Shown piece by piece: positions 21,422 through 47,984 of a stretch of DNA of 64,000 nucleotides. The notes under the pieces were generated by a model. That model was not told the origin of the DNA. It ran no database searches and was given only the letters and a program-made list of their open reading frames with translations. The position numbers were made by a program, and so were the translations under genes. The stretch is from Candidatus Micrarchaeota archaeon (GTDB lineage Archaea > Micrarchaeota > Micrarchaeia > Micrarchaeales > CABMGC01). Within the stretch, counting starts at the first letter, position 1; every line of letters starts with the position of its first letter. The stretch covers positions 6,113 to 70,112 of the forward strand of contig JAJYYF010000011.1 in the NCBI GenBank assembly GCA_021801225.1, in the 5' to 3' direction.

Positions 21422-22069
21422 TTATTTGGTTTTTGATCTTGATTTTTTATTTGAGTTTAAAGTACGTTTACGCTTAGATTGTTTTATTTTGCTTTGAAAC
21501 TTTGGTTTTTTAACTTTTTTAATTATAAAGTAATATAACAATCCCAAAATAATTATTATTGCCAATATAATTAGTACTATGTATATTATAGGCAGTCCTA
21601 CTGGTTTTAATGCAGTTACTCCTACTATCTTAGCAACGCCCTGTTGTAGAATAGCTCCGCTTCCAGATATAGTATTATTTGATAGTTCTATTGCTTGTAG
21701 TATGCCGCTCCAATGCATTCCAGGTTTATTTTTATTTGATGGCATATACACAGTAACATTTAATGTTAACTGACCGCCAGAAGGGATTGTACCATTCATT
21801 TGTGAAATAGAAAATGTTGGAGTAGTTGAGTTAGGTATAGTATTTAGTGTAGGTAGTATTATTTTAAAACTTAAAGGTTTAGAGCCACCGTTTATTAATG
21901 TAAAAGGTAATGAAGCACTCCCACCTATACTTGCATTGAAATTTAACTGCCCTGCAACTTCTCCGAATTGAGCATAATTAAGATTAATAAAAAGAAAGGA
22001 AAGAAGAGAAAAAATAAAAAATAAACTAATTAAATGGATACGATTAAAGTTCATATGACCATTTAGCAA
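21422..22069 (-). CDS. Secreted single beta-sandwich-like domain protein with a C-terminal TM anchor and K-rich tail (last gene of the surface operon)
   Basis: 215 aa. Signal-like N-terminus. The domain shows the pattern GGSASLPFTLINGGSKPLSFKIILP...GGQLTLNVTVYMP, then TM PIIYIVLIILAIIIILGLLYYFII and a KKVKKPKFQSKIKQSKRKR tail. Its start overlaps the upstream gene's stop by 7 nt. Confidence 0.55.
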   Translation of the reverse strand: MLNGHMNFNRIHLISLFFIFSLLSFLFINLNYAQFGEVAGQLNFNASIGGSASLPFTLINGGSKPLSFKIILPTLNTIPNSTTPTFSISQMNGTIPSGGQLTLNVTVYMPSNKNKPGMHWSGILQAIELSNNTISGSGAILQQGVAKIVGVTALKPVGLPIIYIVLIILAIIIILGLLYYFIIKKVKKPKFQSKIKQSKRKRTLNSNKKSRSKTK

Positions 22070-22578
22070 GAGTTTTCAAATGTTATTGTTTGAGTGTATG
22101 TACCAGGAGTTGTTCCGCCAGGAACTTCCAATCCGAAGTACACTGTATTTGATGTAGAAGGTGATAAAACTGTTGGTGCAGGTATTTGTATAGCTGTATC
22201 TACTAATGAAGTTGTTAAAGAAACACCTAAGTATGAAGACTGTGACAAACCATTATAATTTGTTTGGCCTACGGCAAATGTATTTGAACCTGAAGCCCAA
22301 GTAGTACCTTCTAAAAGAATATTTGCAGCTACATTTCCGCCATTATCAGTATCTGTTACTAAAACGTTTGTATCATATGCGGAAGTTGGTGCCATATTTC
22401 CAAATGTTATTGAGTTAGGAGAGATTCCTATAAAACAAGCTGATGAAACCACTACATTTGCATTGACGTTTGAGCTTCCTGATGAAGGGTATATGAGTGG
22501 AAATGATAAATAACTCATAACTCCTATTACTCCAAAGAAAATGCCTAATAACAAACTTAAATTCTTTTTTTGCAACAT
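22063..22578 (-). CDS. Small secreted protein consisting of the Cys-bracketed module shared with the 1510-aa adhesin (candidate filament subunit)
   Basis: 171 aa. Signal peptide, then ...NVNANVVVSSACFIGISPNSITFG...NTVYFGLEVPGGTTPGTYTQTITFENSC. It ends with the same FGLxVPGGTxxGTYxQxITFENSC as the giant protein. Confidence 0.6.
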   Translation of the reverse strand: MLQKKNLSLLLGIFFGVIGVMSYLSFPLIYPSSGSSNVNANVVVSSACFIGISPNSITFGNMAPTSAYDTNVLVTDTDNGGNVAANILLEGTTWASGSNTFAVGQTNYNGLSQSSYLGVSLTTSLVDTAIQIPAPTVLSPSTSNTVYFGLEVPGGTTPGTYTQTITFENSC

Positions 22579-22701
22579 ATTAATACCAAGTAAATATCAA
22601 ACTAAAACATTTATATAGTTATCTGTAATTATTTGAACCGCCAAAGATAAAACTTTATTTTGTTCAGATTAAAACTAAATTTATTAAAGCTAAATTTTTA
22701 T

Positions 22702-25700
22702 TTAACATGAGTTCTCAAAGGTTATGATTTGTTGATATGTCCCAGAGTTAGTACCACCTGGAACTCTCAGACCGAAGTATATTGAGTTGCTTCCAGTAGA
22801 AGGTATGCTAATCAAGGTATTTGATAAAACAGATGTAAGTTTTGATGCAGTAGAAAATGCAATGTTGTTTGTTGCTGCCCATGTAGTATTACTCACACCA
22901 AACTGTGTAGGTCCAATCCAATTTCCTCCAAAAATATACATGTATGCGCCAGTATTCCCAGTATTTGTATCGATTATAGAGTTTATAGTGTTTATACTTG
23001 AAGAGGGATTTAAAGTACCAAAAGTTATTGAGTTTTGATTTAATGATATAGTACAAGTAGATTGTGAGGATACAGGAAAAACACTTCCCTGAAAAACGTA
23101 AGGCATAACTCCATTAGGAGGATATGCTCGTATAATTAACCCATTCATATACTGGGTTGAGGTACCACTTCCAGCGTCTCCTACAAATCCAAGATAATCT
23201 CCTTTGTTTGTTACACTATAATTATTAGAAGGATTTTTTCCTATTTCAGTTCCATAAGTTCCAGGAGTGGTCGATAAGAACAGTTGAGCATTACCATTAG
23301 TTATTGTTAGACCCATTAGTAGCCATTCATTTGACCATGTTCCTGTGTCAGGAGGTGCATACCACAATATCCATGATGCTGAAGGAGCAATACCGTACCA
23401 TCCAGCACCATTTCCAACCCTAGCAATTTGACCTGCTCCTGTAGAGTTTGCTAAAAAGAATAAATCATCCAAATTTTGCGTATACGTATAATACTCTATT
23501 ATTGAGTTTTCAGATTGATTATTTGCAATAGTATAAAGATAATCGCCATTAGCGCCATTCGCATAAAATGCATTTAGACCAAATGGAGAACCAGAAGGAG
23601 CTGAGGTAGTATCACCAGCAGTACCTGCAACTGTCCAACCGTTTAATGAGCCTCCGTTAAAATAATTGTTAAAAACATAATTACCATTATCATACTGTGC
23701 ATATGTTGAAGTTGCTGTTGGAAACTCTCCTATGCCGTTAATACCGCCGTTAGAAAGTAAGTTTAATGTATTACTTCCAAAACCAATATATAGAGGATAA
23801 ATAGAGTTTGATGATATACCATAGGGTAGTTTTACCCATATAGTGAGGTTACCTGTATTATTATTCTCTATCCATGAAGGAATAACATCGCCACTAATGT
23901 TAAATATCTCGAAATTAGCATCGTTTCCATTATACTGAAGATAATTTTTATAAGTGCTTTCATTTATGCTAATTAATTGCTGAAAAGCACCCTGTACCGA
24001 AGCAGTTTGATTATTAAGAATACATAAAGGTGCATAAAATAATGTATTATAAGGTGTACTGCTAGGTGTATTAACTACACATACATCTTGTTTAACGCTG
24101 TTTGATAAATAATTGCCGTTTCCAGAACTTGATAATGTAATATTGTATAAATTATTACCAGTAGGAGGATAAAAATCATAAATATTATTAGAGTTTGAAC
24201 TTGATACAGATGAACCATCTATATATAAAACAGATTGAATCTGATTCCCAGGTGTTGAAATTGAATAATTAATTGGGAAGTAACTTCCACTGTTCAATAT
24301 TACTTTGGGTAAATTTAATTTTAAAGAAGGGTATGCCTGTATTACATCCAATAATGTATTTGTACTTACTCCGGAGGTTATATCATTTACAGATATAGTG
24401 TAACTTCCAGGAGATATGCAGTCGCTAATAGATGGAGTCGCTCCACATATGGTGTATGTTACTACATTTGCAGTAGGACCAGCAAGTAAAACTCCGTCAT
24501 TAAATAACTCCAACATATCTTGACTTTTTGGGCTTATTCCGTTAATTATATCTGAACTTCCATATGCAACCGGATTATTTTGTATTTGGATTACAGGCAT
24601 ACTTGAAGATTGAGGAGTGCCGAATGATGCAGAAGGCATAACACCATTTGGAGGATAGTTACGTATTATAAAGCCATTCCAATATGTTATATGAGATGAA
24701 CCTAAACCGTCGCCTACTAATCCAATATAATCACCATTATTTTTTATAGAAAATTGAGATGTTGCAAGAGTACCTAATGTTGAGATATAATTTGAAACAC
24801 TACCAATATACGCATTTGCAGTAGTACTTGATATAACAACATCGTATTTATACCAAATATTTTCTGAAGTATCTATTCCGGGAGATGGAGCCGCCCACGA
24901 TGTCCAGGAACTGGTTGTTGCAATTCCAGAATAATCACCACCGCCTCTGCCGTCAAGTCTTGCCATCTGTCCTGAACCAGCAGAGTTTGTAAGAAAAAAG
25001 AGGTTACCAAGACCAGTAGTGTATACATCAAAAGTTATGATAGAATTTTGAGACAGACCACTTATAGGTAAGTACATATAATCACCGTTTGCAGAGTTCG
25101 CATATAACGCGTTTGGACTAGAATAATAACTTCCTGATGGAGCCGTTTTTTCTCCAGCAGTACCGTGGATTGTCCAACCAGATGAAGAACTTGGATTTAC
25201 GTTGTAATATGTAAATACAGTTGATCCATCATCATACTCGGCATAAATTGGACTTAGTTGTGGTGCCTCCCCGATATCAACATTATTAAATAAATTCTGT
25301 GAAGTTAATGAAAAACCCATGTATATTGTAATACCATTATCTGGCATAATAGTATTGGAAAGTTTTAACCAGTAAATAGTGTTTGTAGAGGTGTAAAAAT
25401 AAATTGAGTTTGTTGGATTATTTAATAAGTTATTGCTTGTACTGCCTTCCATCCAGCTCGGAATTATGCTTCCATTATAATAAAAAAATTCTATGTTACT
25501 CAGATTTTTAGACTCGTAACTTTTAAATTCTAAACTGTTTACTGGAAGCATATATTGAAAAGGTACAGGAGTAGGTTCATTTTGCAAATTAGATAAAGTG
25601 ATTGGTACATAAGAGAGTATTCCAGACGGTATTACTATCAAGGTAGGATCTACGGAAGAGTAATTATTATTTCCATAAGTATCAAAAGTAATGATAGCAT

Positions 25701-27234
25701 TAGTTGTATAGGGCAAGTTATAAAGAAAAGTTTTATTTACCGAGTTATAATTGCCACTCCCTGTAACTGTTGTTCCATTGTTAAATTTTATAGAATATGA
25801 AAACTCTGCATAATTATTATTACCAAGAACACTTTTTAAAGATATAGATAAGTTGTAATTTTTTTTATTTTCTAATACTGGAACATAAATTTTACCAGTT
25901 GAGTTTGTTTTATTAAATGATACTCCATCAACTGCTATAGACATATTAGGAGCAGCCTTTACAACTGAAATATTGTAATATGAAACAGTAGATTGATTAT
26001 TGTAAGTGAGTAGATTTATACTCTTCCCAGCAGGAATAAATTTTCCATCTTGTTTTATTAAACCATAACTCAGATTGAATGTTTGATTATATTGAGTTAT
26101 AGGAATCCTTTTTGTTTTTATATAATTTTTGAAATTTAAAAGTTGTTGATTGCTTAAAGATGTAAGATTATTGATAATTGAATAATTTAGATATATGCTA
26201 CTATTACTCGATGTATTTATGCTATTTATAGAAGTATTATAATTTGTATTAAGATTTTGATTTGATAATTTAGGGTTTATTTCGCTTTTTATATTTGCGA
26301 TATCTGCTGTCGAGTTTAGAGATTCTTTAATTTTTGAAGAAATTAATAATGGTTTAATAAATACTCCCTTGGACATGTTGAAATTATTAAATAATGGGAT
26401 TATTATTTTTGAGATGTTGCTCGAGCTAGAAAATGTTGAGTTAGATATGGAATAATTATACTGAATAGCCATTGCAGTTATGTTTTTTACTTTTATAGAG
26501 TTGTTTTTATTAGTGATATTTGTATTTTTATTGAGTAACGAGATATTTAATAATGAAAAATTAATAGTTGTATTATAAGCATATGATAAATTTTCTTCGT
26601 TTTTATTTGGAAAGTATAAAATATTTCCATCTGTAATATTTTTTATTATAAAGGTATTATTTGTTCCAGAATACTTAAAGATTATTAGATTTGAATTAGA
26701 AGATTTTTCTATTCCGCCATATGATAAATTCCAACTCGTATTGAGGGGTAAGCCTTTCTCATAAAACTCAATAATCTTCAATACTGTATAATTTATTAAT
26801 ATTTTGTTTGAAGAGTTAAATTTGCTTATATTTATATCTTTTATTGAAGGAATAAAGACTTCGTTTCCATAAGATATATTAGAAATAAGTAATATGTTAC
26901 TATAATTTTGCTCATTATTTTGAATAGATATGGAGTTTGGAGTAATAGAATTAAATGCATCTGAAAAATTATTTATATATACACTCCATGATATATTTTT
27001 TGGTAAGCCATTTTCTATAATGCTAATATTTTTGTAATTTGTTTTTGTATATGATGTGTTTATTAGAGTAGTATTAACCTGAGAGTAGGATTGATTAGAA
27101 ATAATTGAGTTACTTATAAAATTATTAGAGTTTATTGTGTTATTAGAAATAACAGTATTTGAAACATTTGCTAATGTTAAAAGTAATAATACTGGAGGTA
27201 ATAGAATAATAAATAAACCAGAGTAACGAAACAT
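22702..27234 (-). CDS. Giant secreted adhesin-like protein (1510 aa)
   Basis: Signal peptide (LFIILLPPVLLLLTLA). The N-terminal region carries two E(N/K)GLPxNxSW beta-sandwich-type repeats. Two ~320-aa duplicated units carry patterns I associate with DUF2341 (NIEFFYYNGSIIPSWMEG / NFEIFNISGDVIPSWIEN ...IWVKL) followed by concanavalin/LamG-like regions; each unit ends in IIR(N/A)YPPNGVMP. The C-terminal module matches the 171-aa protein. Confidence 0.7.
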   Translation of the reverse strand: MFRYSGLFIILLPPVLLLLTLANVSNTVISNNTINSNNFISNSIISNQSYSQVNTTLINTSYTKTNYKNISIIENGLPKNISWSVYINNFSDAFNSITPNSISIQNNEQNYSNILLISNISYGNEVFIPSIKDINISKFNSSNKILINYTVLKIIEFYEKGLPLNTSWNLSYGGIEKSSNSNLIIFKYSGTNNTFIIKNITDGNILYFPNKNEENLSYAYNTTINFSLLNISLLNKNTNITNKNNSIKVKNITAMAIQYNYSISNSTFSSSSNISKIIIPLFNNFNMSKGVFIKPLLISSKIKESLNSTADIANIKSEINPKLSNQNLNTNYNTSINSINTSSNSSIYLNYSIINNLTSLSNQQLLNFKNYIKTKRIPITQYNQTFNLSYGLIKQDGKFIPAGKSINLLTYNNQSTVSYYNISVVKAAPNMSIAVDGVSFNKTNSTGKIYVPVLENKKNYNLSISLKSVLGNNNYAEFSYSIKFNNGTTVTGSGNYNSVNKTFLYNLPYTTNAIITFDTYGNNNYSSVDPTLIVIPSGILSYVPITLSNLQNEPTPVPFQYMLPVNSLEFKSYESKNLSNIEFFYYNGSIIPSWMEGSTSNNLLNNPTNSIYFYTSTNTIYWLKLSNTIMPDNGITIYMGFSLTSQNLFNNVDIGEAPQLSPIYAEYDDGSTVFTYYNVNPSSSSGWTIHGTAGEKTAPSGSYYSSPNALYANSANGDYMYLPISGLSQNSIITFDVYTTGLGNLFFLTNSAGSGQMARLDGRGGGDYSGIATTSSWTSWAAPSPGIDTSENIWYKYDVVISSTTANAYIGSVSNYISTLGTLATSQFSIKNNGDYIGLVGDGLGSSHITYWNGFIIRNYPPNGVMPSASFGTPQSSSMPVIQIQNNPVAYGSSDIINGISPKSQDMLELFNDGVLLAGPTANVVTYTICGATPSISDCISPGSYTISVNDITSGVSTNTLLDVIQAYPSLKLNLPKVILNSGSYFPINYSISTPGNQIQSVLYIDGSSVSSSNSNNIYDFYPPTGNNLYNITLSSSGNGNYLSNSVKQDVCVVNTPSSTPYNTLFYAPLCILNNQTASVQGAFQQLISINESTYKNYLQYNGNDANFEIFNISGDVIPSWIENNNTGNLTIWVKLPYGISSNSIYPLYIGFGSNTLNLLSNGGINGIGEFPTATSTYAQYDNGNYVFNNYFNGGSLNGWTVAGTAGDTTSAPSGSPFGLNAFYANGANGDYLYTIANNQSENSIIEYYTYTQNLDDLFFLANSTGAGQIARVGNGAGWYGIAPSASWILWYAPPDTGTWSNEWLLMGLTITNGNAQLFLSTTPGTYGTEIGKNPSNNYSVTNKGDYLGFVGDAGSGTSTQYMNGLIIRAYPPNGVMPYVFQGSVFPVSSQSTCTISLNQNSITFGTLNPSSSINTINSIIDTNTGNTGAYMYIFGGNWIGPTQFGVSNTTWAATNNIAFSTASKLTSVLSNTLISIPSTGSNSIYFGLRVPGGTNSGTYQQIITFENSC
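23090..24040 (-). repeat. Intragenic duplicated unit 2 (DUF2341/LamG-like) of the 1510-aa protein
   Basis: Protein-level repeat: FEIFNISGDVIPSWIENNNTGNLTIWVKLP...GWTVAGTAGDTTSAPSG...GDYLGFVGDAGSG...LIIRAYPPNGVMP. It parallels unit 1 residue block by residue block. Confidence 0.7.
24620..25612 (-). repeat. Intragenic duplicated unit 1 (DUF2341/LamG-like) of the 1510-aa protein
   Basis: IEFFYYNGSIIPSWMEG...IYWLKLS...GWTIHGTAGEKTAPSG...GDYIGLVGDGLGS...FIIRNYPPNGVMP. Confidence 0.7.
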
Positions 27235-27270: not shown

Positions 27271-28047
27271 TTATCTTTCTTTTTTAAATAAGCCAATTAT
27301 AAATGAGATAATACCTCTTTTGTAGTAATTTTGAGTGTTTGTTGATTTTGATGGGAAAAAGTTCGCTGTTTCAAGTATTGCTTTTGAAAATAAAGAACGT
27401 TTCTCTAAAAGAATTGCTGGTATATGCATAGCTATACTTTTTGGTACAACCTCTGACTCAGGCAAAACGCCTAATGCCTTTGAACCAAACATCTCCTCTA
27501 TCTCCTTTACATGAATCTCATATCGTTTGTTTTTAACTCTGTTTATAACCATATTTGATTTAAGTCCGAATTTTTTGTAGTTATTTGATAGCCTTACACA
27601 ACTTGTACAGGAGCTTAATTCTGGAGTAGTGATTATAATACCTTCATCACACATAGATGAAAACTCTGGAACTAGATAACCAGGAGCTGTATCAAATATT
27701 ATATAATCGTATCTTGACTTTTTGAGCTCATTTATAAATTTTTGTATTTGGAGTATGGATGGCTCTTTCTGATGACCAACAATACTTCCAGGAATTACTT
27801 TTAACCCTGTAGGAATGTGTGGTACCTCAACATCGCTGATTTTTGCATTTTTGAGTAGTATATCAGAAACTCCTAGATTTTGATTTTCTATACCTAAATG
27901 AAAACCGACACTTGGATTTGCAATATCAAAATCCACTAATAATACAGTATTGCCCATTTCTTGAAGAGATGTTGCTAAATTTACAGAAAATGTGGTCTTA
28001 CCTACACCTCCTTTTTGGGATGATACTTTTATTAGATATGGAGTCAT
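27271..28047 (-). CDS. MinD/ParA-family P-loop ATPase embedded in the surface operon
   Basis: 258 aa. Deviant Walker A SQKGGVGKTT, Walker B IIFDTAPG, and a C-terminal amphipathic segment GIISFIIGLFKKER. Its start codon directly abuts the stop of the upstream 682-aa gene. Confidence 0.85.
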   Translation of the reverse strand: MTPYLIKVSSQKGGVGKTTFSVNLATSLQEMGNTVLLVDFDIANPSVGFHLGIENQNLGVSDILLKNAKISDVEVPHIPTGLKVIPGSIVGHQKEPSILQIQKFINELKKSRYDYIIFDTAPGYLVPEFSSMCDEGIIITTPELSSCTSCVRLSNNYKKFGLKSNMVINRVKNKRYEIHVKEIEEMFGSKALGVLPESEVVPKSIAMHIPAILLEKRSLFSKAILETANFFPSKSTNTQNYYKRGIISFIIGLFKKER

Positions 28048-30096
28048 TTAATCACTATTTTTATCATAACTTCGTTCAACTTGATCCTTTATTCTTCTAA
28101 GTTCTTGACTTCTTTCTTTATTATATCTTGATTTATTCATCTTTACAACTAAATAGATTATTAATAAGGATAAAAATAATAAAGTAACGCTTATATAGGT
28201 CATTTTGGAGTTAATCAGATATTCAAATGGAGAGACACTGGAGTTTGTAGTGTTTTGAGTGTTTTTACTAGGCAACTGAGTAGTGTTTACCTTATTTGTA
28301 ACTAGTATAGGTATAGAATAAGAATAATTAACGTTTGTGCTTTTTATTAAAAGGGATATTAACATTGTTCCGGTGCTTGAGTTAGTTGAAATGTTAAAAT
28401 TAGTATAAAACAATTTATTTGGGGATACATTAAATGTTTGTATTGGATTTTGTATGCTTAAAGACCCATAGTTAGATAACATGAATGATACCTTATTATC
28501 AGTAACCCCAGTATACAAGGAGGTTATGGTTATGTGATTAGTTGAGTTAACATAAAATGTAGGTATATTTATTTTTAATATGTCAAGATTACTTTGAGTA
28601 TTTAAATTTGACTGAACAGCAAATATATTCTGTGTATTTTGTAAAAATGATTGATCAGATATATTTTTTATTTGATAATATGCGTAGGTGCTTTGGCCTT
28701 TTTGTAGATAGGGAATATACCAGTTTATATCGTAATATCCCTCAGAAGTGGTTAGATTATTTTGAACACCGTAAGCTGAGATCTGGGAGATGTTTTTTGC
28801 TGATGATAAAGGAAGTTTTGTGATTAAAGTTATGTTAGATAGTGATTTATTCAAAGGTGCAGAGATATAAATTGTACCGAATGCATCTGCAGTGTTATTT
28901 GTTAATATTACCTGTGAGTTTATAATAGGTTTTAATTGTGTATTATTATAGATATTTAAGGTTACAAACTCTTCTTGAGTCTCGGTCGTACCGTTTAATA
29001 TATGAGTAGTTATGTTTATAGGTATTGTATAAAAACCTGGTGATGCGGTATTATTGCCGATAAAATTCAATGATATTGAAAGAGAAGAGTCAGGGTTTAT
29101 ATAAATATTTTTTGATGAAAAAGAGATAATTTTTGAAAATTTCTCTGGTACTGACATATTTAAAATCTCTGGAACAGACCCAGTATTAAATATTTTTAAT
29201 GATGATGTGGTCTCTGTTCCTTGTCCAGTAGAGACGTATATTGGAATGTTTAGTATTGAAAGCTGTGGGAATGAGGTTATAAAGGTTTTATGTTGTGGAG
29301 GACTTGGAGAGGATGTACTATACTGATTTTGTATTACATTATAAAATATTTTTTTTTCTGAGTAGCCTTTAATATTTGGATATTCTGAAGTATTGAATAG
29401 TATTAATGCAGTTACATTATATCTTCCTGGAATAGACGTTAAATTTTCAGGTTCTATTATTGTAATATTTTTACTTTCTCCTGGAGACAGACCTGTTTCG
29501 TTATATTTAGTATTAATTGAAACTGGACCTGAAATTGAGAAGTTTATAGTTATTTCATTTGAAGCAAGATTTCCAGTGTTTGATAGGTTTATATTAAAAA
29601 CTATTTGTGAGTTTATGTTTGTTTGATTTGGAATAGCTACAAAATTAGATACTGCAATGTTAGCCGGCAATATCAACGAAAGTGATTTTTTACTTGTATT
29701 GTAAAAATTTTCTCCGGAAAATGAAAGATTGATTATAGAGTTAACTGGAAAGGAAGATGTATTTAGTGTTATTATAGAGTTGTATTCATTTTTTAAATTA
29801 GATAAAGTTATAGATTTTTGATACAATATTGAATTTGAGTTCTTAGGAGTTACGTTCACATAACCAGAGATACTTCCTATGTTACAGCTATATTGTGAAG
29901 TTATAGAGTAACTAAGGGATATTTGAGAGTATTTTATATATATTGGAAGGGAGTTTAACACTAATTTAAAAGGACATATTACATTTACATTTGCCGATAA
30001 AGAACTACTTGAAAATGATAATGGAAGCAATAAATACAATAAAATTAATGTAAGACTAAATGTAGTAATAATTAATCTTTTGGGCTCTTTATACAA
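28048..30096 (-). CDS. Secreted multi-domain protein (CARDB/NEW3-like beta-sandwich repeats) with a C-terminal TM anchor and charged cytoplasmic tail
   Basis: 682 aa with a signal peptide. Repeats have the form ...VFNINLSNTGNLASNEITINFSISGP...GESKNITI...PGRYNVTALI and ...LKIFNTGSVPEILNMSVP...PGFYTIPINIT. C-terminal TM VTLLFLSLLIIYLVV, then KMNKSRYNKERSQELRRIKDQ. Confidence 0.6.
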   Translation of the reverse strand: MYKEPKRLIITTFSLTLILLYLLLPLSFSSSSLSANVNVICPFKLVLNSLPIYIKYSQISLSYSITSQYSCNIGSISGYVNVTPKNSNSILYQKSITLSNLKNEYNSIITLNTSSFPVNSIINLSFSGENFYNTSKKSLSLILPANIAVSNFVAIPNQTNINSQIVFNINLSNTGNLASNEITINFSISGPVSINTKYNETGLSPGESKNITIIEPENLTSIPGRYNVTALILFNTSEYPNIKGYSEKKIFYNVIQNQYSTSSPSPPQHKTFITSFPQLSILNIPIYVSTGQGTETTSSLKIFNTGSVPEILNMSVPEKFSKIISFSSKNIYINPDSSLSISLNFIGNNTASPGFYTIPINITTHILNGTTETQEEFVTLNIYNNTQLKPIINSQVILTNNTADAFGTIYISAPLNKSLSNITLITKLPLSSAKNISQISAYGVQNNLTTSEGYYDINWYIPYLQKGQSTYAYYQIKNISDQSFLQNTQNIFAVQSNLNTQSNLDILKINIPTFYVNSTNHITITSLYTGVTDNKVSFMLSNYGSLSIQNPIQTFNVSPNKLFYTNFNISTNSSTGTMLISLLIKSTNVNYSYSIPILVTNKVNTTQLPSKNTQNTTNSSVSPFEYLINSKMTYISVTLLFLSLLIIYLVVKMNKSRYNKERSQELRRIKDQVERSYDKNSD

Positions 30097-44839: not shown

Positions 44840-45286
44840 ATGCGATTATGGTCACTCAAATTATCATATTTAGATACAATGGGATTACTTGCAGTATGGA
44901 GAGAAGGATTATTAGCAAAAAAGGTACTAGAAGGTAAAACTAAAGGTTATAAAAATCATCCGCAGTTGGAGCGATTTAAAGCATTAGATGATCCATTAAT
45001 TGGAATTAATACATACTTAAATCAGGTTTATTTAGAGTCTCTTTCGAGGGATTATGCGTTTTCTAAAGATAAAGTAAATCCTTCTCTAATAGATAAAAAT
45101 GTAAAAATACCATTAAATGATAAACAGTTAAGTTATGAGTTTGAGTTATTAAAAACAAAACTTAAAATTAGAGATAATAAAAGTTATCAAAAGATAAAAG
45201 ATATAGAAATACCGGAACATGTCTCTATTTTTTCAATAAGAAAAGGCCCAATAGAAAATTGGGAAAAAATTAAAAAACTTAATTAA
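44840..45286 (+). CDS. Pyrimidine-dimer DNA glycosylase (T4 endonuclease V-like) family protein
   Basis: MRLWSLKLSYLDTMGLLAVWREGLLAKKVLEGKTKGYKNHPQLERF matches the family N-terminus as I recall it. Confidence 0.6.
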   Translation: MRLWSLKLSYLDTMGLLAVWREGLLAKKVLEGKTKGYKNHPQLERFKALDDPLIGINTYLNQVYLESLSRDYAFSKDKVNPSLIDKNVKIPLNDKQLSYEFELLKTKLKIRDNKSYQKIKDIEIPEHVSIFSIRKGPIENWEKIKKLN

Positions 45287-47984
45287 TAACAGTTACATTG
45301 TGAGATTTAATGTAATCTGGATTGCTGACATTTACTGCTACTTTCGCACCCATTATTGTTGTATTGTATAATGAAAATCCTTTTCCAGAGTCAATTATTG
45401 GATATGTAAAGCCAACGAGATAACAGTTTGATATTGTTACTCCAGTAGTATTTATGTTAGCAAATGTTCCTCCATTTGTTGCATATATTGTATGACCACG
45501 GCAGTTTATCACTGTGTTGTTTGTTATTTTTCCATTTTCATTGTTTATAACATAACAAGTATTTCCATAAGAGTAAACCATATCGCTTTGGAAGCTAACA
45601 AATCCAGAGTTTGCAAAATTAAAGCAGGATTCGGTAGAATCAGGATTGATTGAAACTAACCAAGGACAACCTGATTTTTTAATACCAGTGTTTATGTTCA
45701 TTTTATTAGAAATTAGATTTTCTCCTGCTCCGCAATAATAATCTTGTTGGAAGTTGCTTAGCGCTTTATTTCCAGATACATTGTCATTTGATGAATTAGA
45801 AATACTGAAACCATAAACAGGATTACTGTTTCCAACATTTCCTACTACTTTACTTTCGGTAACATTATTCAATGCAAAACCAGTTGCATTGAAAAGACCG
45901 CTGCTTGCAACATCATTTTCAATTGAGATCTGTTTTCCATTTGTTATTGAAATTCCATATAATCTAAATGCGGATATCTTTACATTTCCAATTGAGCTAT
46001 CAGTTACATTTTTATAAACTGATCCTTGTGATACTTCAGATATTGTAGTATTTTGTAGATCTAGATTATTGAGATTTGATGCGTAAATTCCGTAATCATA
46101 ACTTTGAATTTGACAGTCTGAAATACTAACATTGCTGTTGCCATTATCAATTATACCATATCCATTATTTGTCCCGCTAATCAATTTATTATTACAATTT
46201 AATTTTACATCTGGAGCTTTTATTGATATACAACTTCCACTTGATGTTAAGTTTTGATTTATTTGGTATGTTCCAGGAATTGATATTGTTTGACATAATG
46301 TTATTGGGATAGTTTGAAGTGGGGGTGGAAGTTGTTTAGTACAAGTATTAAATGCGAATTGACACTCAGTACTTACGCAACTTGAGTTATAAATACTAGC
46401 AACTGATGAAGAGTTGTAGGTACTAGCTGGACAGTATATATCTCCTGCAAGATTATTTTTAGTATTAATTTTATTGTAAACATTTGAGTTACCTTTGTCT
46501 AAATATTGGCCATATAGATTACCAGATGTTGTTACATTTTGTATAACAAAGCCTATGCTTTGATTTTCATAAACTCCGAATTGATTATTGTTTGATATAG
46601 AGTTGCTCAACAAACCAGAGGTAGAGTTCTTAATATAAACACCGTAATTACCTTGAGTTGCGGTTATATTGAATAAGTTCGTGTTTATAGAGCCATTTAC
46701 AAATAAACCATATGTATTGTATTTAAGATCACAGTTTTCTACAGTTGTATTGTAAAGATCTTTTAAGTATATTCCATAATAAGAACTGACTATTGTTTTA
46801 CCGTTACAATTAAGTTTAACATTAGGCGCAGTTATTGTTATGCAAGGATAACTAGATGCACCTTTAGTATAATCACTTAAGTTGAGATTTTGCAAAATTG
46901 TGTAAGTACCATAGCTATCTATTGCACCACAAGTGTTAATGTCCTTTGATAACTTTACATTTTCTATACTATAATAATTATTTGAGCTACAAGTTGCAAA
47001 GTTACAGAGTTGATTATTTTGACATGTTGTTTTTGAGAAGTTATTTGTGTTCTTTGTATTAGCATTTGAACCACAGATCAAATCAGTAGGATTTTGCAAA
47101 AATGTATCTCCATAAAAGTTATTGCCAGTACTGTTTACATACAAGCCATAATATGCATTATTTATAAATGAAGTTCCAGAGAACAAATTACTTGTTCCAC
47201 TGTTGATATTAACGCCTCCGGAATTACTTTGAGAACCATATATTGTATTGTTTATTATTTTATTGTGAGAAGAGTTGTTCAAAAACATGTTAGATAATGT
47301 AGAATTTGATAAATACAAATCAGTTAAGTTGTTGTTATTTGAGTTCTTTAAATACAAGGAGTAAGAAAATCTTGAAACATTAAGCTTATTTATTGAAACA
47401 TTTGAAACTCCGGAAAGTAATATCCCATAAGTGAATGGTGCAACATCTATGTATGGACCACTTCCTTTTAAGTGATAGTTGTTTCCATTTATTATGACAT
47501 CACTTGAAAGTACTTCTATACAGCTTCCACTTTTAATTGATGTAGTTATATTACCAGTTACTGTGTAAATACCAGGTTGATTTATTACAGTACATGAGCT
47601 TAAATCCTTTGATTGAAAACTAGCAACTGTTGTCGTAGAGTTCGATGAAGTTTGAGTTGTTGTAGTGGATTGATTTGAAGTAATTGAGTGTAAATAAGGG
47701 AAAGAAAATACAAACGCAACAAGTATTATCCCTATTATTGGTATAATATAAAATTTTTTTCGTATTTTTTTATTATTGTTTTGTTGTGGTTGTTGTGCTT
47801 GAGTTTTATTATTAGCATTGTTATTTTTATTTGGATTATTATTAGTAGGAGCAACAGTAGAAGTGGTAATATTGCCTGAGTCACTAACATTGTTATTACC
47901 CGTATTATTACTATTATTAAACTGAGATTTATTTTGGTTATTAATAGTTGATTTTTGATTACTATTTGTGGGATTGTCTGCCAT
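45279..47984 (-). CDS. Surface protein with right-handed parallel beta-helix repeats, an N/Q-rich N-terminal tail and a signal anchor
   Basis: 901 aa. About 75 aa of N/Q/T low complexity, TM IIPIIGIILVAFVF, then repeated units of the NosD/PbH1 type (CxxIxxxGxYxLxxNL...CIxIxAPxVxLNCNG, seen twice) with many cysteines. Confidence 0.6.
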   Translation of the reverse strand: MADNPTNSNQKSTINNQNKSQFNNSNNTGNNNVSDSGNITTSTVAPTNNNPNKNNNANNKTQAQQPQQNNNKKIRKKFYIIPIIGIILVAFVFSFPYLHSITSNQSTTTTQTSSNSTTTVASFQSKDLSSCTVINQPGIYTVTGNITTSIKSGSCIEVLSSDVIINGNNYHLKGSGPYIDVAPFTYGILLSGVSNVSINKLNVSRFSYSLYLKNSNNNNLTDLYLSNSTLSNMFLNNSSHNKIINNTIYGSQSNSGGVNINSGTSNLFSGTSFINNAYYGLYVNSTGNNFYGDTFLQNPTDLICGSNANTKNTNNFSKTTCQNNQLCNFATCSSNNYYSIENVKLSKDINTCGAIDSYGTYTILQNLNLSDYTKGASSYPCITITAPNVKLNCNGKTIVSSYYGIYLKDLYNTTVENCDLKYNTYGLFVNGSINTNLFNITATQGNYGVYIKNSTSGLLSNSISNNNQFGVYENQSIGFVIQNVTTSGNLYGQYLDKGNSNVYNKINTKNNLAGDIYCPASTYNSSSVASIYNSSCVSTECQFAFNTCTKQLPPPLQTIPITLCQTISIPGTYQINQNLTSSGSCISIKAPDVKLNCNNKLISGTNNGYGIIDNGNSNVSISDCQIQSYDYGIYASNLNNLDLQNTTISEVSQGSVYKNVTDSSIGNVKISAFRLYGISITNGKQISIENDVASSGLFNATGFALNNVTESKVVGNVGNSNPVYGFSISNSSNDNVSGNKALSNFQQDYYCGAGENLISNKMNINTGIKKSGCPWLVSINPDSTESCFNFANSGFVSFQSDMVYSYGNTCYVINNENGKITNNTVINCRGHTIYATNGGTFANINTTGVTISNCYLVGFTYPIIDSGKGFSLYNTTIMGAKVAVNVSNPDYIKSHNVTVIN

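Follow-up and report, generated by a model that had tools for sequence, protein, structure and literature searches.

A candidate strand-swapping fibre or stalk encoded by a conserved gene cassette of Micrarchaeota

A shared module at the C-termini of a small and a giant secreted protein

The window analysed here, a stretch of 64,000 nucleotides from a Candidatus Micrarchaeota archaeon (contig JAJYYF010000011.1, positions 6,113 to 70,112), is AT-rich (GC content of about 30%) and carries on its minus strand a group of neighbouring genes encoding a 682-residue membrane protein, an ATPase, a secreted giant protein of 1510 residues, a secreted pilin-like protein of 171 residues and a 210-residue membrane-tethered protein with an immunoglobulin (Ig) domain, hereafter the Ig-transmembrane (Ig-TM) protein (Table 1). 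The label Micrarchaeota is borne by all contigs that are near-identical or related to the window, among them the complete genome of Ca. Micrarchaeum sp. A_DKE. An earlier note on this DNA, made by reading the sequence alone, had proposed that the 171- and 1510-residue proteins end in a common module, assigned to positions 22063-23094, a span that comprises the small gene and the module part of the large one. This was borne out by BLASTP, in which residues 19-171 of the small protein align with residues 1375-1510 of its large counterpart (154 columns, 39% identity, E = 2e-21), the shared stretch being about 125 residues long. As the note had also observed, each copy starts at a Cys in the first strand (C48 and C1394, respectively) and finishes on a C-terminal Cys in the sequence ITFENSC; in the small protein the stop codon follows directly after this last residue, Cys171. 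The pairing of the small protein with the C-terminus of the large one is far beyond chance and recurs elsewhere.

Table 1. Features of the locus, in coordinates of the window.
Feature	Position	Strand	Description
Ig-TM protein, 210 residues	21422..22054	(-)	Signal peptide, mature N-terminus QFGEVAG, one ASH/HYDIN/MSP-type Ig domain, transmembrane helix, poly-basic cytoplasmic tail
Small subunit (pilin-like), 171 residues	22063..22578	(-)	Sec-type signal peptide (about residues 1-33), N-terminal extension, module at residues 48-171
Candidate donor strand of the 171-residue protein, residues 35-47	22438..22476	(-)	SNVNANVVVSSA, directly before Cys48; from the family consensus
TATA-box-like element	22609..22618	(-)	CTATATAAAT, read from the sequence; about 36 nucleotides upstream of the pilin ATG, in the 123-nucleotide gap behind the adhesin gene
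Secreted giant protein, candidate tip adhesin, 1510 residues	22702..27234	(-)	C-terminus formed by the module
C-terminal module of the 1510-residue protein, residues 1387-1510	22705..23076	(-)	Cys1394...Cys1510; family hidden Markov model (HMM), E = 2e-47
MinD/ParA-family P-loop ATPase, 258 residues	27271..28047	(-)	Pfam AAA_31 (2e-21), CbiA, ParA; abuts the upstream gene
Candidate anchor, 682 residues	28048..30096	(-)	Signal peptide, pilin-like N-terminal motif, beta-rich ectodomain of about 600 residues (CARDB-like), C-terminal transmembrane helix, charged cytoplasmic tail
Donor-strand-like motif of the 682-residue protein, residues 30-41	29974..30009	(-)	SSSLSANVNVIC (mature N-terminus SSSLSANVNVICPF); position-specific scoring matrix, hhalign

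The module defines a large family. Word-indexed searches returned only 14 relatives and profile searches 112, and an HMM scan run exhaustively over 1.84 billion cluster representatives yielded 1530 members at E<=1e-3 and 569 at E<=1e-10. Members occur in three forms, namely single-module proteins of about 170 residues, natural two-module proteins of about 315-340 residues and large proteins of about 500 to 3421 residues; one distant member carries the Joint Genome Institute name 'spore coat protein U-like'. The listed large proteins all end with the module, which runs to their final residue, and across the roughly 33 genome loci, where the arrangement of a large module-ending protein followed by a small one- or two-module protein recurs, Cys is the final residue of every module-bearing protein. 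A PGF-CTERM/archaeosortase-type or lipobox-like signal was considered for this C-terminus and rejected, the place of a short motif with a hydrophobic helix and a basic tail being taken by a beta domain of 125 residues.

The start and end Cys were both present in 159 non-redundant modules and both absent in 18 (Fisher p ~5e-25), each of the 18 being the first module of a tandem protein; two modules that seem to break the rule resemble artefacts (one from an error in the position estimate on a truncated contig, the other P0058). Since the two residues covary, a disulfide within the module is favoured and a sorting tag is disfavoured. Head-to-tail bonds between subunits fit the pattern poorly, because tandem proteins would then hold unpaired Cys, and in four-Cys tandems module 1 has its end Cys at an internal position, so that this residue is no C-terminal processing signal. 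The covariation lends computational support to the terminal disulfide staple suggested by the earlier note, and fits a predicted bond that joins the start Cys and the end Cys of one and the same module.

Predicted fold, candidate donor strand and relation to known pilins

The AlphaFold2 (AF2) model of the 171-residue protein, built on a 68-sequence alignment, is a beta-sandwich with a mean predicted local distance difference test (pLDDT) value of 90.3, rising to about 98 over residues 41-171; segment 34-48 of this monomer model is coil, with no strand. In Foldseek searches against the PDB, FimG ranked first (E = 6e-4), followed by CsuA/B (1.3e-3; template-modelling (TM) scores 0.39/0.48) and then by FimA (TMt up to 0.56), CfaB, PapA, Caf1 and the pilin domain of PapG. 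Lower-ranked matches included the archaeal cannulae (9h8b, 1.5e-2), with TasA and bundling pili among 8aur (1.8e-2) and 7ueg (1.9e-2). The model of a tandem relative, P0034 (pLDDT 82.9), gave as its best match 3f84, an engineered in-cis donor-strand CfaB-CfaB fusion (E = 2e-7; TM 0.46/0.47), and next the tip adhesin CsuE (7e-7). When the family profile was compared with PDB sequences, only chance-level matches were obtained (LCI peptide, GH123). The predicted fold is thus of the pilin-type Ig-like kind and, as the TM-scores are moderate, we speak of a pilin-like Ig fold and not of identity. The earlier note had set two outcomes against its pilin idea, a fold unrelated to pilins or SCPU and a generic tag; pilins lead the Foldseek list, and the Cys data oppose a tag.

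Behind the signal peptide of the small protein, the stretch NVNANVVV had been singled out in the note as a possible donor strand. The ten residues that precede the Cys share the consensus NV.ANV.V...C across 142 small subunits; at alternate positions the fraction of hydrophobic residues is 0.93, 0.82, 0.94 and 0.95, and it is low between them. The linkers before module 2 of tandem proteins keep the motif (NV-ANV-V). The large proteins (n = 53) lack an alternating-hydrophobic motif in front of the Cys. In the P0034 model, analysed by DSSP, the linker copy of the motif (QTTVTANVIV, residues 176-185) forms a 10-residue strand seven residues past the last strand of module 1, which is itself lengthened to 11 residues (158-168), while the free N-terminal copy is coil of low confidence and the last strand is only 6 residues long in module 2 and in the single-module model. 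The motif is thus modelled as a beta strand only when it stands behind another module. We read these DSSP strings to mean that the last strand of each module n pairs with the strand supplied by module n+1. Judged by sequence and model, a putative donor strand is present on the small subunits and lacking on the candidate tip adhesin, and the role proposed for the NVNANVVV stretch is further favoured by its alignment with the donor strand of CsuA/B (see below).

Two variations on this motif were observed. In three distant single-module proteins (P0118, P0120 and P0122), a Cys-rich insert (DUF7107/EB-module-like) replaces the usual donor strand after the signal peptide. A few large proteins hold an internal donor-like motif (NTVVANVIVTD), which lies just upstream of the C-terminal module in locus L031 (at about residue 1485 of a 1635-residue protein) and in L026, and in L027 within a 1984-residue open reading frame (ORF) in which no module was detected. 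These internal copies may self-complement or mark a degenerate extra module.

With respect to sequence, the resemblance to SCPU and Csu pilins noticed in the earlier note found some support, and formal membership of the family did not. The 171-residue protein had no SCPU match in Pfam, and among the 68 family members 20 had sub-threshold matches, the best of which (P0096, 20.9 bits, E = 5e-4) lies under the SCPU (PF05229) gathering score of 22.4 bits; five members matched DUF4402. For a direct comparison, the sequence of CsuA/B was confirmed against PDB 7zl4 and a CsuA/B family alignment was built, which is shallow (Neff 3.3) because the word-based search gave mostly Acinetobacter orthologues; the single CsuA/B sequence compared with the family profile gave nothing useful. 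Aligned by hhalign with this shallow alignment, the family gave a probability of 41-72% (P = 3e-5 to 3e-4) with 33 confident columns, which cover the N-terminal extension, the Cys and the FG motif and pair SNVNANVVVSSAC...FG of the family with the CsuA/B donor strand AVTGQVDVKLNISTGC...FG; a relaxed alignment is colinear from the signal peptide to both C-termini. The hhalign score of 31.3 compares with a maximum of 18.6 over 100 column shuffles, with 11.0 for the reversed profile and with 19.0 for an unrelated family. Judged from these profile comparisons, the SCPU/Csu resemblance appears to be real and above background.

The likeness to the archaic (sigma) chaperone-usher system Csu of Acinetobacter baumannii extends over several features. 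CsuA/B shares with the small subunits a signal peptide, an alternating-hydrophobic N-terminal strand (in CsuA/B the donor strand), a first-strand Cys, an FG motif and a last strand G-x-Y-x-x-T-[ILV] that closes at the protein C-terminus. CsuE is a two-domain tip adhesin, and the giant protein would share with it an acceptor-only pilin domain at the C-terminus of a tip protein; CsuE is also matched in fold by the P0034 model (7e-7). However, the disulfide of CsuA/B (C41-C88 in precursor numbering) joins the A-strand Cys to an internal B-strand Cys, whereas the aligned A-strand Cys of the family is predicted to pair with the C-terminal Cys. The Csu system has an usher and the two-domain chaperone CsuC/PapD, in place of which the cassette holds a single-domain ASH-like Ig-TM protein, a TM-anchored candidate donor-strand protein and a MinD-like ATPase, and the archaeon that encodes it has no outer membrane. 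No matches to PapD_N, PapD_C or Usher were found among the cassette proteins.

Other donor-strand systems were also compared. In the CfaB fusions (3f84/3f85) of the class 5 (alternate) chaperone-usher system CFA/I, as would also hold for the P0034 model, the first domain is completed by the strand behind it, which then continues into the second; a sequence relation is not detectable, however, and the domain fusion is man-made there and natural in the two-module relatives. The thread of Sulfolobus acidocaldarius (Saci_0406) consists of a Sec-exported type-I-pilin-like subunit that polymerises head-to-tail by donor-strand complementation without an usher, a neighbouring gene having been proposed as the cap (PMC9715654). 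It resembles the present family in being archaeal, Sec-exported, pilin-like and usher-free, but no thread entry stood among the top 50 Foldseek matches of the 171-residue and P0034 models, a comparison made on structures and not directly on sequences, and threads lack the Cys bracket, a giant adhesin with a C-terminal pilin domain, and Ig-TM or MinD partners. Threads are also heavily N-glycosylated, whereas the module family is about 5-fold depleted in N-x-S/T sequons (50 observed in the 68 modules against 241 expected), the mature small subunit of the window (module 22066-22476) having none against about 3.7 expected. The Pyrodictium cannulae (CanA), TasA fibres and archaeal bundling pili (AbpA) are likewise chaperone-free donor-strand polymers of beta-sandwich subunits, with weak fold matches to the family, but they rank under the chaperone-usher pilins and differ in operon content. 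By every test run, TasA-like and thread-like families are more distant.

Two further candidate classes were rejected in the course of the analysis. TasA/Peptidase_M73 (camelysin) had no Pfam match in the 68 members and only weak fold matches (E ~2e-2), and no gene for a SipW-type peptidase was found in the cassette. A type IV pilin was discarded on direct reading of the signal peptide, where a [KR]-[GA] cleavage motif ahead of the hydrophobic stretch is lacking.

Partner proteins and distribution of the cassette

The giant protein combines the C-terminal module with a heavily glycosylatable remainder. Its N-terminal part of about 500 residues (25735-27234) is Asn-rich and holds 44 of the protein's 58 N-glycosylation sequons, and two DUF2341-like/lectin-like regions lie in its middle. 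Pfam and NCBIfam searches with this and five other large module proteins returned almost nothing, apart from sub-threshold DUF2341 and one InlB B-repeat, and the N-terminal parts of the large proteins are highly variable between loci. The DUF2341-like region at about residues 1104-1197 (23644-23925, minus strand) has a weak, uninterpretable match (E ~2e-3) to the PDB entries 9rwu/9rwv, 'Pilus assembly protein'.

The start codon of the 210-residue Ig-TM protein lies 8 nucleotides past the pilin stop. Its family comprises proteins of 190-260 residues with the conserved mature N-terminus QLGEVAG, and its gene adjoins the pilin gene in about 26 loci, also in distant lineages. Profile matches were obtained to CFAP65/HYDIN (E = 3e-9) and to the OCRL ASH domain (E = 6.6e-3), and the Pfam models Cep192_D6, Ig_CFAP65, OCRL-ASH, HYDIN_VesB and Motile_Sperm were each matched by 2-12 of 17 members. 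We take these ASH/HYDIN/CFAP65/OCRL-ASH/MSP-type models to belong to the same Pfam clan as PapD_N. The Ig-TM protein and the pilin module are unrelated (hhalign probability 1.4%).

The ATPase scored 134.8 bits against the NCBIfam model of archaeal MinD, under its cut-off, and its C-terminus (27271-27330, minus strand) contains an amphipathic stretch (GIISFIIGLFKK / GIISFIIGLFKKER) that resembles the membrane-targeting helix of MinD. It is conserved in about 16 Micrarchaeota loci and missing from distant ones.

The 682-residue protein (28051-30096) holds 32 sequons. When the 3789 ORFs of all loci were scanned with a position-specific scoring matrix (PSSM), for whose training nothing but the N-terminal strands of pilins had been used, values of at least 12.5 bits were reached in 13 of the 17 members of the family of about 680 residues, always just past the signal peptide, compared with 15 of 3678 other ORFs (Fisher p = 2e-26); a local hhalign match between the pilin motif and the 682-residue family (39% identity, E = 1e-3) agreed. 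This membrane-anchored protein therefore appears to carry a donor-type strand, and it is no module protein. As for transcription, the TATA-like element CTATATAAAT is possibly a separate, perhaps stronger promoter for the small subunit.

In the roughly 33 genome loci, the cassette consists of the TM protein of about 680 residues, the abutting MinD/ParA-type ATPase, a large variable module protein, the small-module gene or genes (one, two in tandem or, in L033, three separate) and the Ig-TM protein. The large module protein is sometimes encoded elsewhere in the same genome, and cassettes without any large protein were found (L012, L013, L020 and L022-L024). In several metagenome-assembled genomes, adhesin and pilin cassette lie on different contigs (L012/L030; L009/L025). 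The genome of A_DKE (NZ_CP060530) has two cassettes about 14 kb apart, L028 and L035, one of which is complete with the pilin Micr_00920. The cultured Micrarchaeon ARM-1, in which fibrous connections to the host were seen by transmission electron microscopy (PMC8784108), encodes the tandem homologue P0055.

In the distant lineages L038 (labelled Nanoarchaeota), L039 and L040 the ATPase is missing, and four components are kept: the adhesin, the pilin, a clear Ig-TM homologue (E = 6e-18 to 5e-9) and one more protein whose N-terminus is donor-like. In L040 (ENA ERZ27254763, 3225-10061), the neighbours of the Ig-TM homologue, the pilin P0121 and a small protein with a donor-like N-terminus are a DUF2341 protein and two thioredoxin genes of the DsbA-like type. 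This contig also carries a gene for an extracytoplasmic function (ECF) sigma-70 factor and a BlaR/BlaI-like pair, so that its label 'archaeon' may be wrong and the family may reach bacteria. Another label is probably a mis-binning: L017 (JAVYSI010000089), assigned to Methanothrix sp., is a 2.6-kb contig with the typical Micrarchaeota order of adhesin, pilin and Ig-TM genes.

Proposed assembly and rival explanations

The cassette looks as if it encoded a fibre or stalk, built by strand swapping and not described before, with which the archaeon attaches to other cells. The arrangement that we consider rather probable comprises a membrane anchor, at least one pilin and a tip adhesin, linked by donor-strand complementation, with the module as an incomplete Ig-like domain of the pilin type. 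From the distribution of the motif and the predicted fold we infer strand exchange and the following polarity. The mature small subunit would begin with a free N-terminal strand (S-N-V-N-A-N-V-V-V), followed by its module, and this strand would insert into the module of the protein before it, next to the final strand (F), and complete that fold. Since the small subunits could both donate and accept, they would link in series, as a fibre or as a short stalk. The 1510-residue protein has the module and no donor strand; it would therefore only accept and sit distally like FimH or CsuE, its variable, heavily glycosylated N-terminal part contacting the host. At the other end, the 682-residue protein would most likely donate the last strand, plug the groove of the last subunit and so anchor the chain in the membrane. 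The bond between start and end Cys would clamp the end of the acceptor groove, and the strictly C-terminal acceptor modules may need a free carboxylate, as in chaperone-usher subunits. The membrane-tethered Ig-TM protein probably handles the subunits before assembly, as a chaperone or assembly factor, and a probable task of the MinD-like ATPase is to position or regulate the apparatus via the cytoplasmic tails.

Donor-strand fibres have already been described in archaea (threads, cannulae, bundling pili and tafi), and the general type of system is therefore known. Of these, threads, cannulae and bundling pili are regarded as chaperone-free and as convergent with bacterial chaperone-usher pili. 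What is new here is the module family, together with a giant adhesin whose C-terminus is a pilin domain, a predicted terminal disulfide, a donor-strand TM anchor, a conserved PapD-superfamily Ig-TM partner and a MinD-like ATPase; in our full-text searches, no paper was found that links DPANN archaea to SCPU or to donor-strand fibres. By what means DPANN archaea recognise their hosts and become attached to them is still an open question, and we know of no attachment organelle of Micrarchaeota that has been assigned to genes. The cassette provides concrete candidates for a hypervariable adhesin, for a subunit that polymerises or acts as an adaptor, for a membrane anchor and for an assembly factor, testable in cultured A_DKE (Micr_00920 and its neighbours) and ARM-1 (ARM1_0672).

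A bolder version of this assembly, which seems to us possible and yet doubtful, is that Micrarchaeota and other DPANN archaea with the core genes possess an usher-less relative of the Csu/SCPU pathway. True SCPU homologues would then be assembled at the cytoplasmic membrane by a tethered single-domain Ig protein of the PapD superfamily, capped by hypervariable giant adhesins and anchored by a donor-strand TM protein, in an organelle with which these ectosymbionts recognise and hold the host and whose link to the bacterial pathway would be one of descent or transfer and not of convergence. With traces of SCPU at the sequence level and a PapD-superfamily Ig protein as the most conserved neighbour, both homology and chaperone dependence become directly testable. 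If true, such a relative would connect the chaperone-usher pili of bacteria with the donor-strand fibres of archaea.

Several points weigh against a donor-strand assembly. All the evidence is computational, and the strand pairings were derived from DSSP strings and Foldseek matches. The Foldseek scores are modest (TM 0.38-0.56), with the N-terminal beta-sandwich of GH123 scoring in the same range, and the CsuA/B profile match is confident over just 33 columns (probability 41-72%). The cassette has neither an usher nor a two-domain PapD chaperone. In L028 of A_DKE the small subunit is absent, a 1792-residue adhesin being followed directly by the Ig-TM gene, and in other loci the large one is missing, so that not every part has to be present in cis.

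These last irregularities bear on a docking of fixed stoichiometry, in which one adhesin, one or two adaptor modules and the 682-residue anchor form a short, defined stalk without homopolymerisation. The order of genes in L028 would suit such a stalk, as would the discrete variation between lineages in the modules per small gene (one, two in tandem or the three genes of L033), and no fibre has been tied to the cassette genes. Nevertheless, the small subunit has a donor strand together with an acceptor module of the same family, so that nothing visible blocks self-addition; it appears to own a TATA-like element, cassettes lacking the large protein exist (see above), and fibrous structures occur in ARM-1 (PMC8784108). 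On balance we hold fixed docking to be unlikely, if still worth serious attention. The modest fold scores bear instead on a generic Ig-like or carbohydrate-binding beta-sandwich without strand exchange, whose small members would be free-standing paralogues and whose likeness to pilins would reflect the common Ig fold. Such a domain would agree with the local sub-threshold matches to the GH123 N-terminal beta-sandwich in 20 of the 68 members (others matching NPCBM_assoc or DUF11), with the GH123 structures among the Foldseek matches and with TM-scores below or near 0.5. It would, however, leave unexplained why a conserved alternating-hydrophobic strand is confined to the places at which a partner module would be expected, why this strand recurs on the membrane-anchored 682-residue protein and why the module is strictly C-terminal; moreover, donor-strand pilins and in-cis fusions outrank ordinary Ig domains. 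We therefore regard a generic sandwich as quite improbable.

The position of the module at the extreme C-terminus, ending in Cys in the listed module proteins, would also be expected of a sorting or anchoring tag whose terminal Cys serves for lipid attachment or sortase-like recognition. Yet the module is a confidently folded domain of 125 residues with no TM segment, the terminal Cys covaries with the N-terminal one, the end Cys of module 1 lies internally in four-Cys tandems, and the cassette has no sortase or archaeosortase gene, all of which leaves a tag with scarcely any likelihood. Only slightly better are the prospects of an S-layer or S-layer anchor of the SlaA/SlaB type, in which the large protein would form a canopy held by the small and membrane-anchored partners, a very unlikely reading in our judgement. 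The operon would suit such a layer in that it combines single-pass membrane proteins and a small partner with a large protein that is secreted and glycosylated, but the cassette proteins match no S-layer families (including PF05123/PF05124), and the large proteins are hypervariable in length and sequence, unlike lattice proteins. The S-layer protein of A_DKE, SLP_Mh, is Micr_00292 (PF05123), its most abundant protein (bioRxiv 10.1101/2021.04.28.441871), which has been described as a protein of about 101 kDa with a copper-binding-protein-like region, and because it differs from the cassette proteins an S-layer role becomes unlikely. Elsewhere in the window, a 901-residue protein with NosD/right-handed beta-helix repeats (45279-47984, minus strand), which has no PF05123 match at E<=1e-3, might be the homologue of SLP_Mh.

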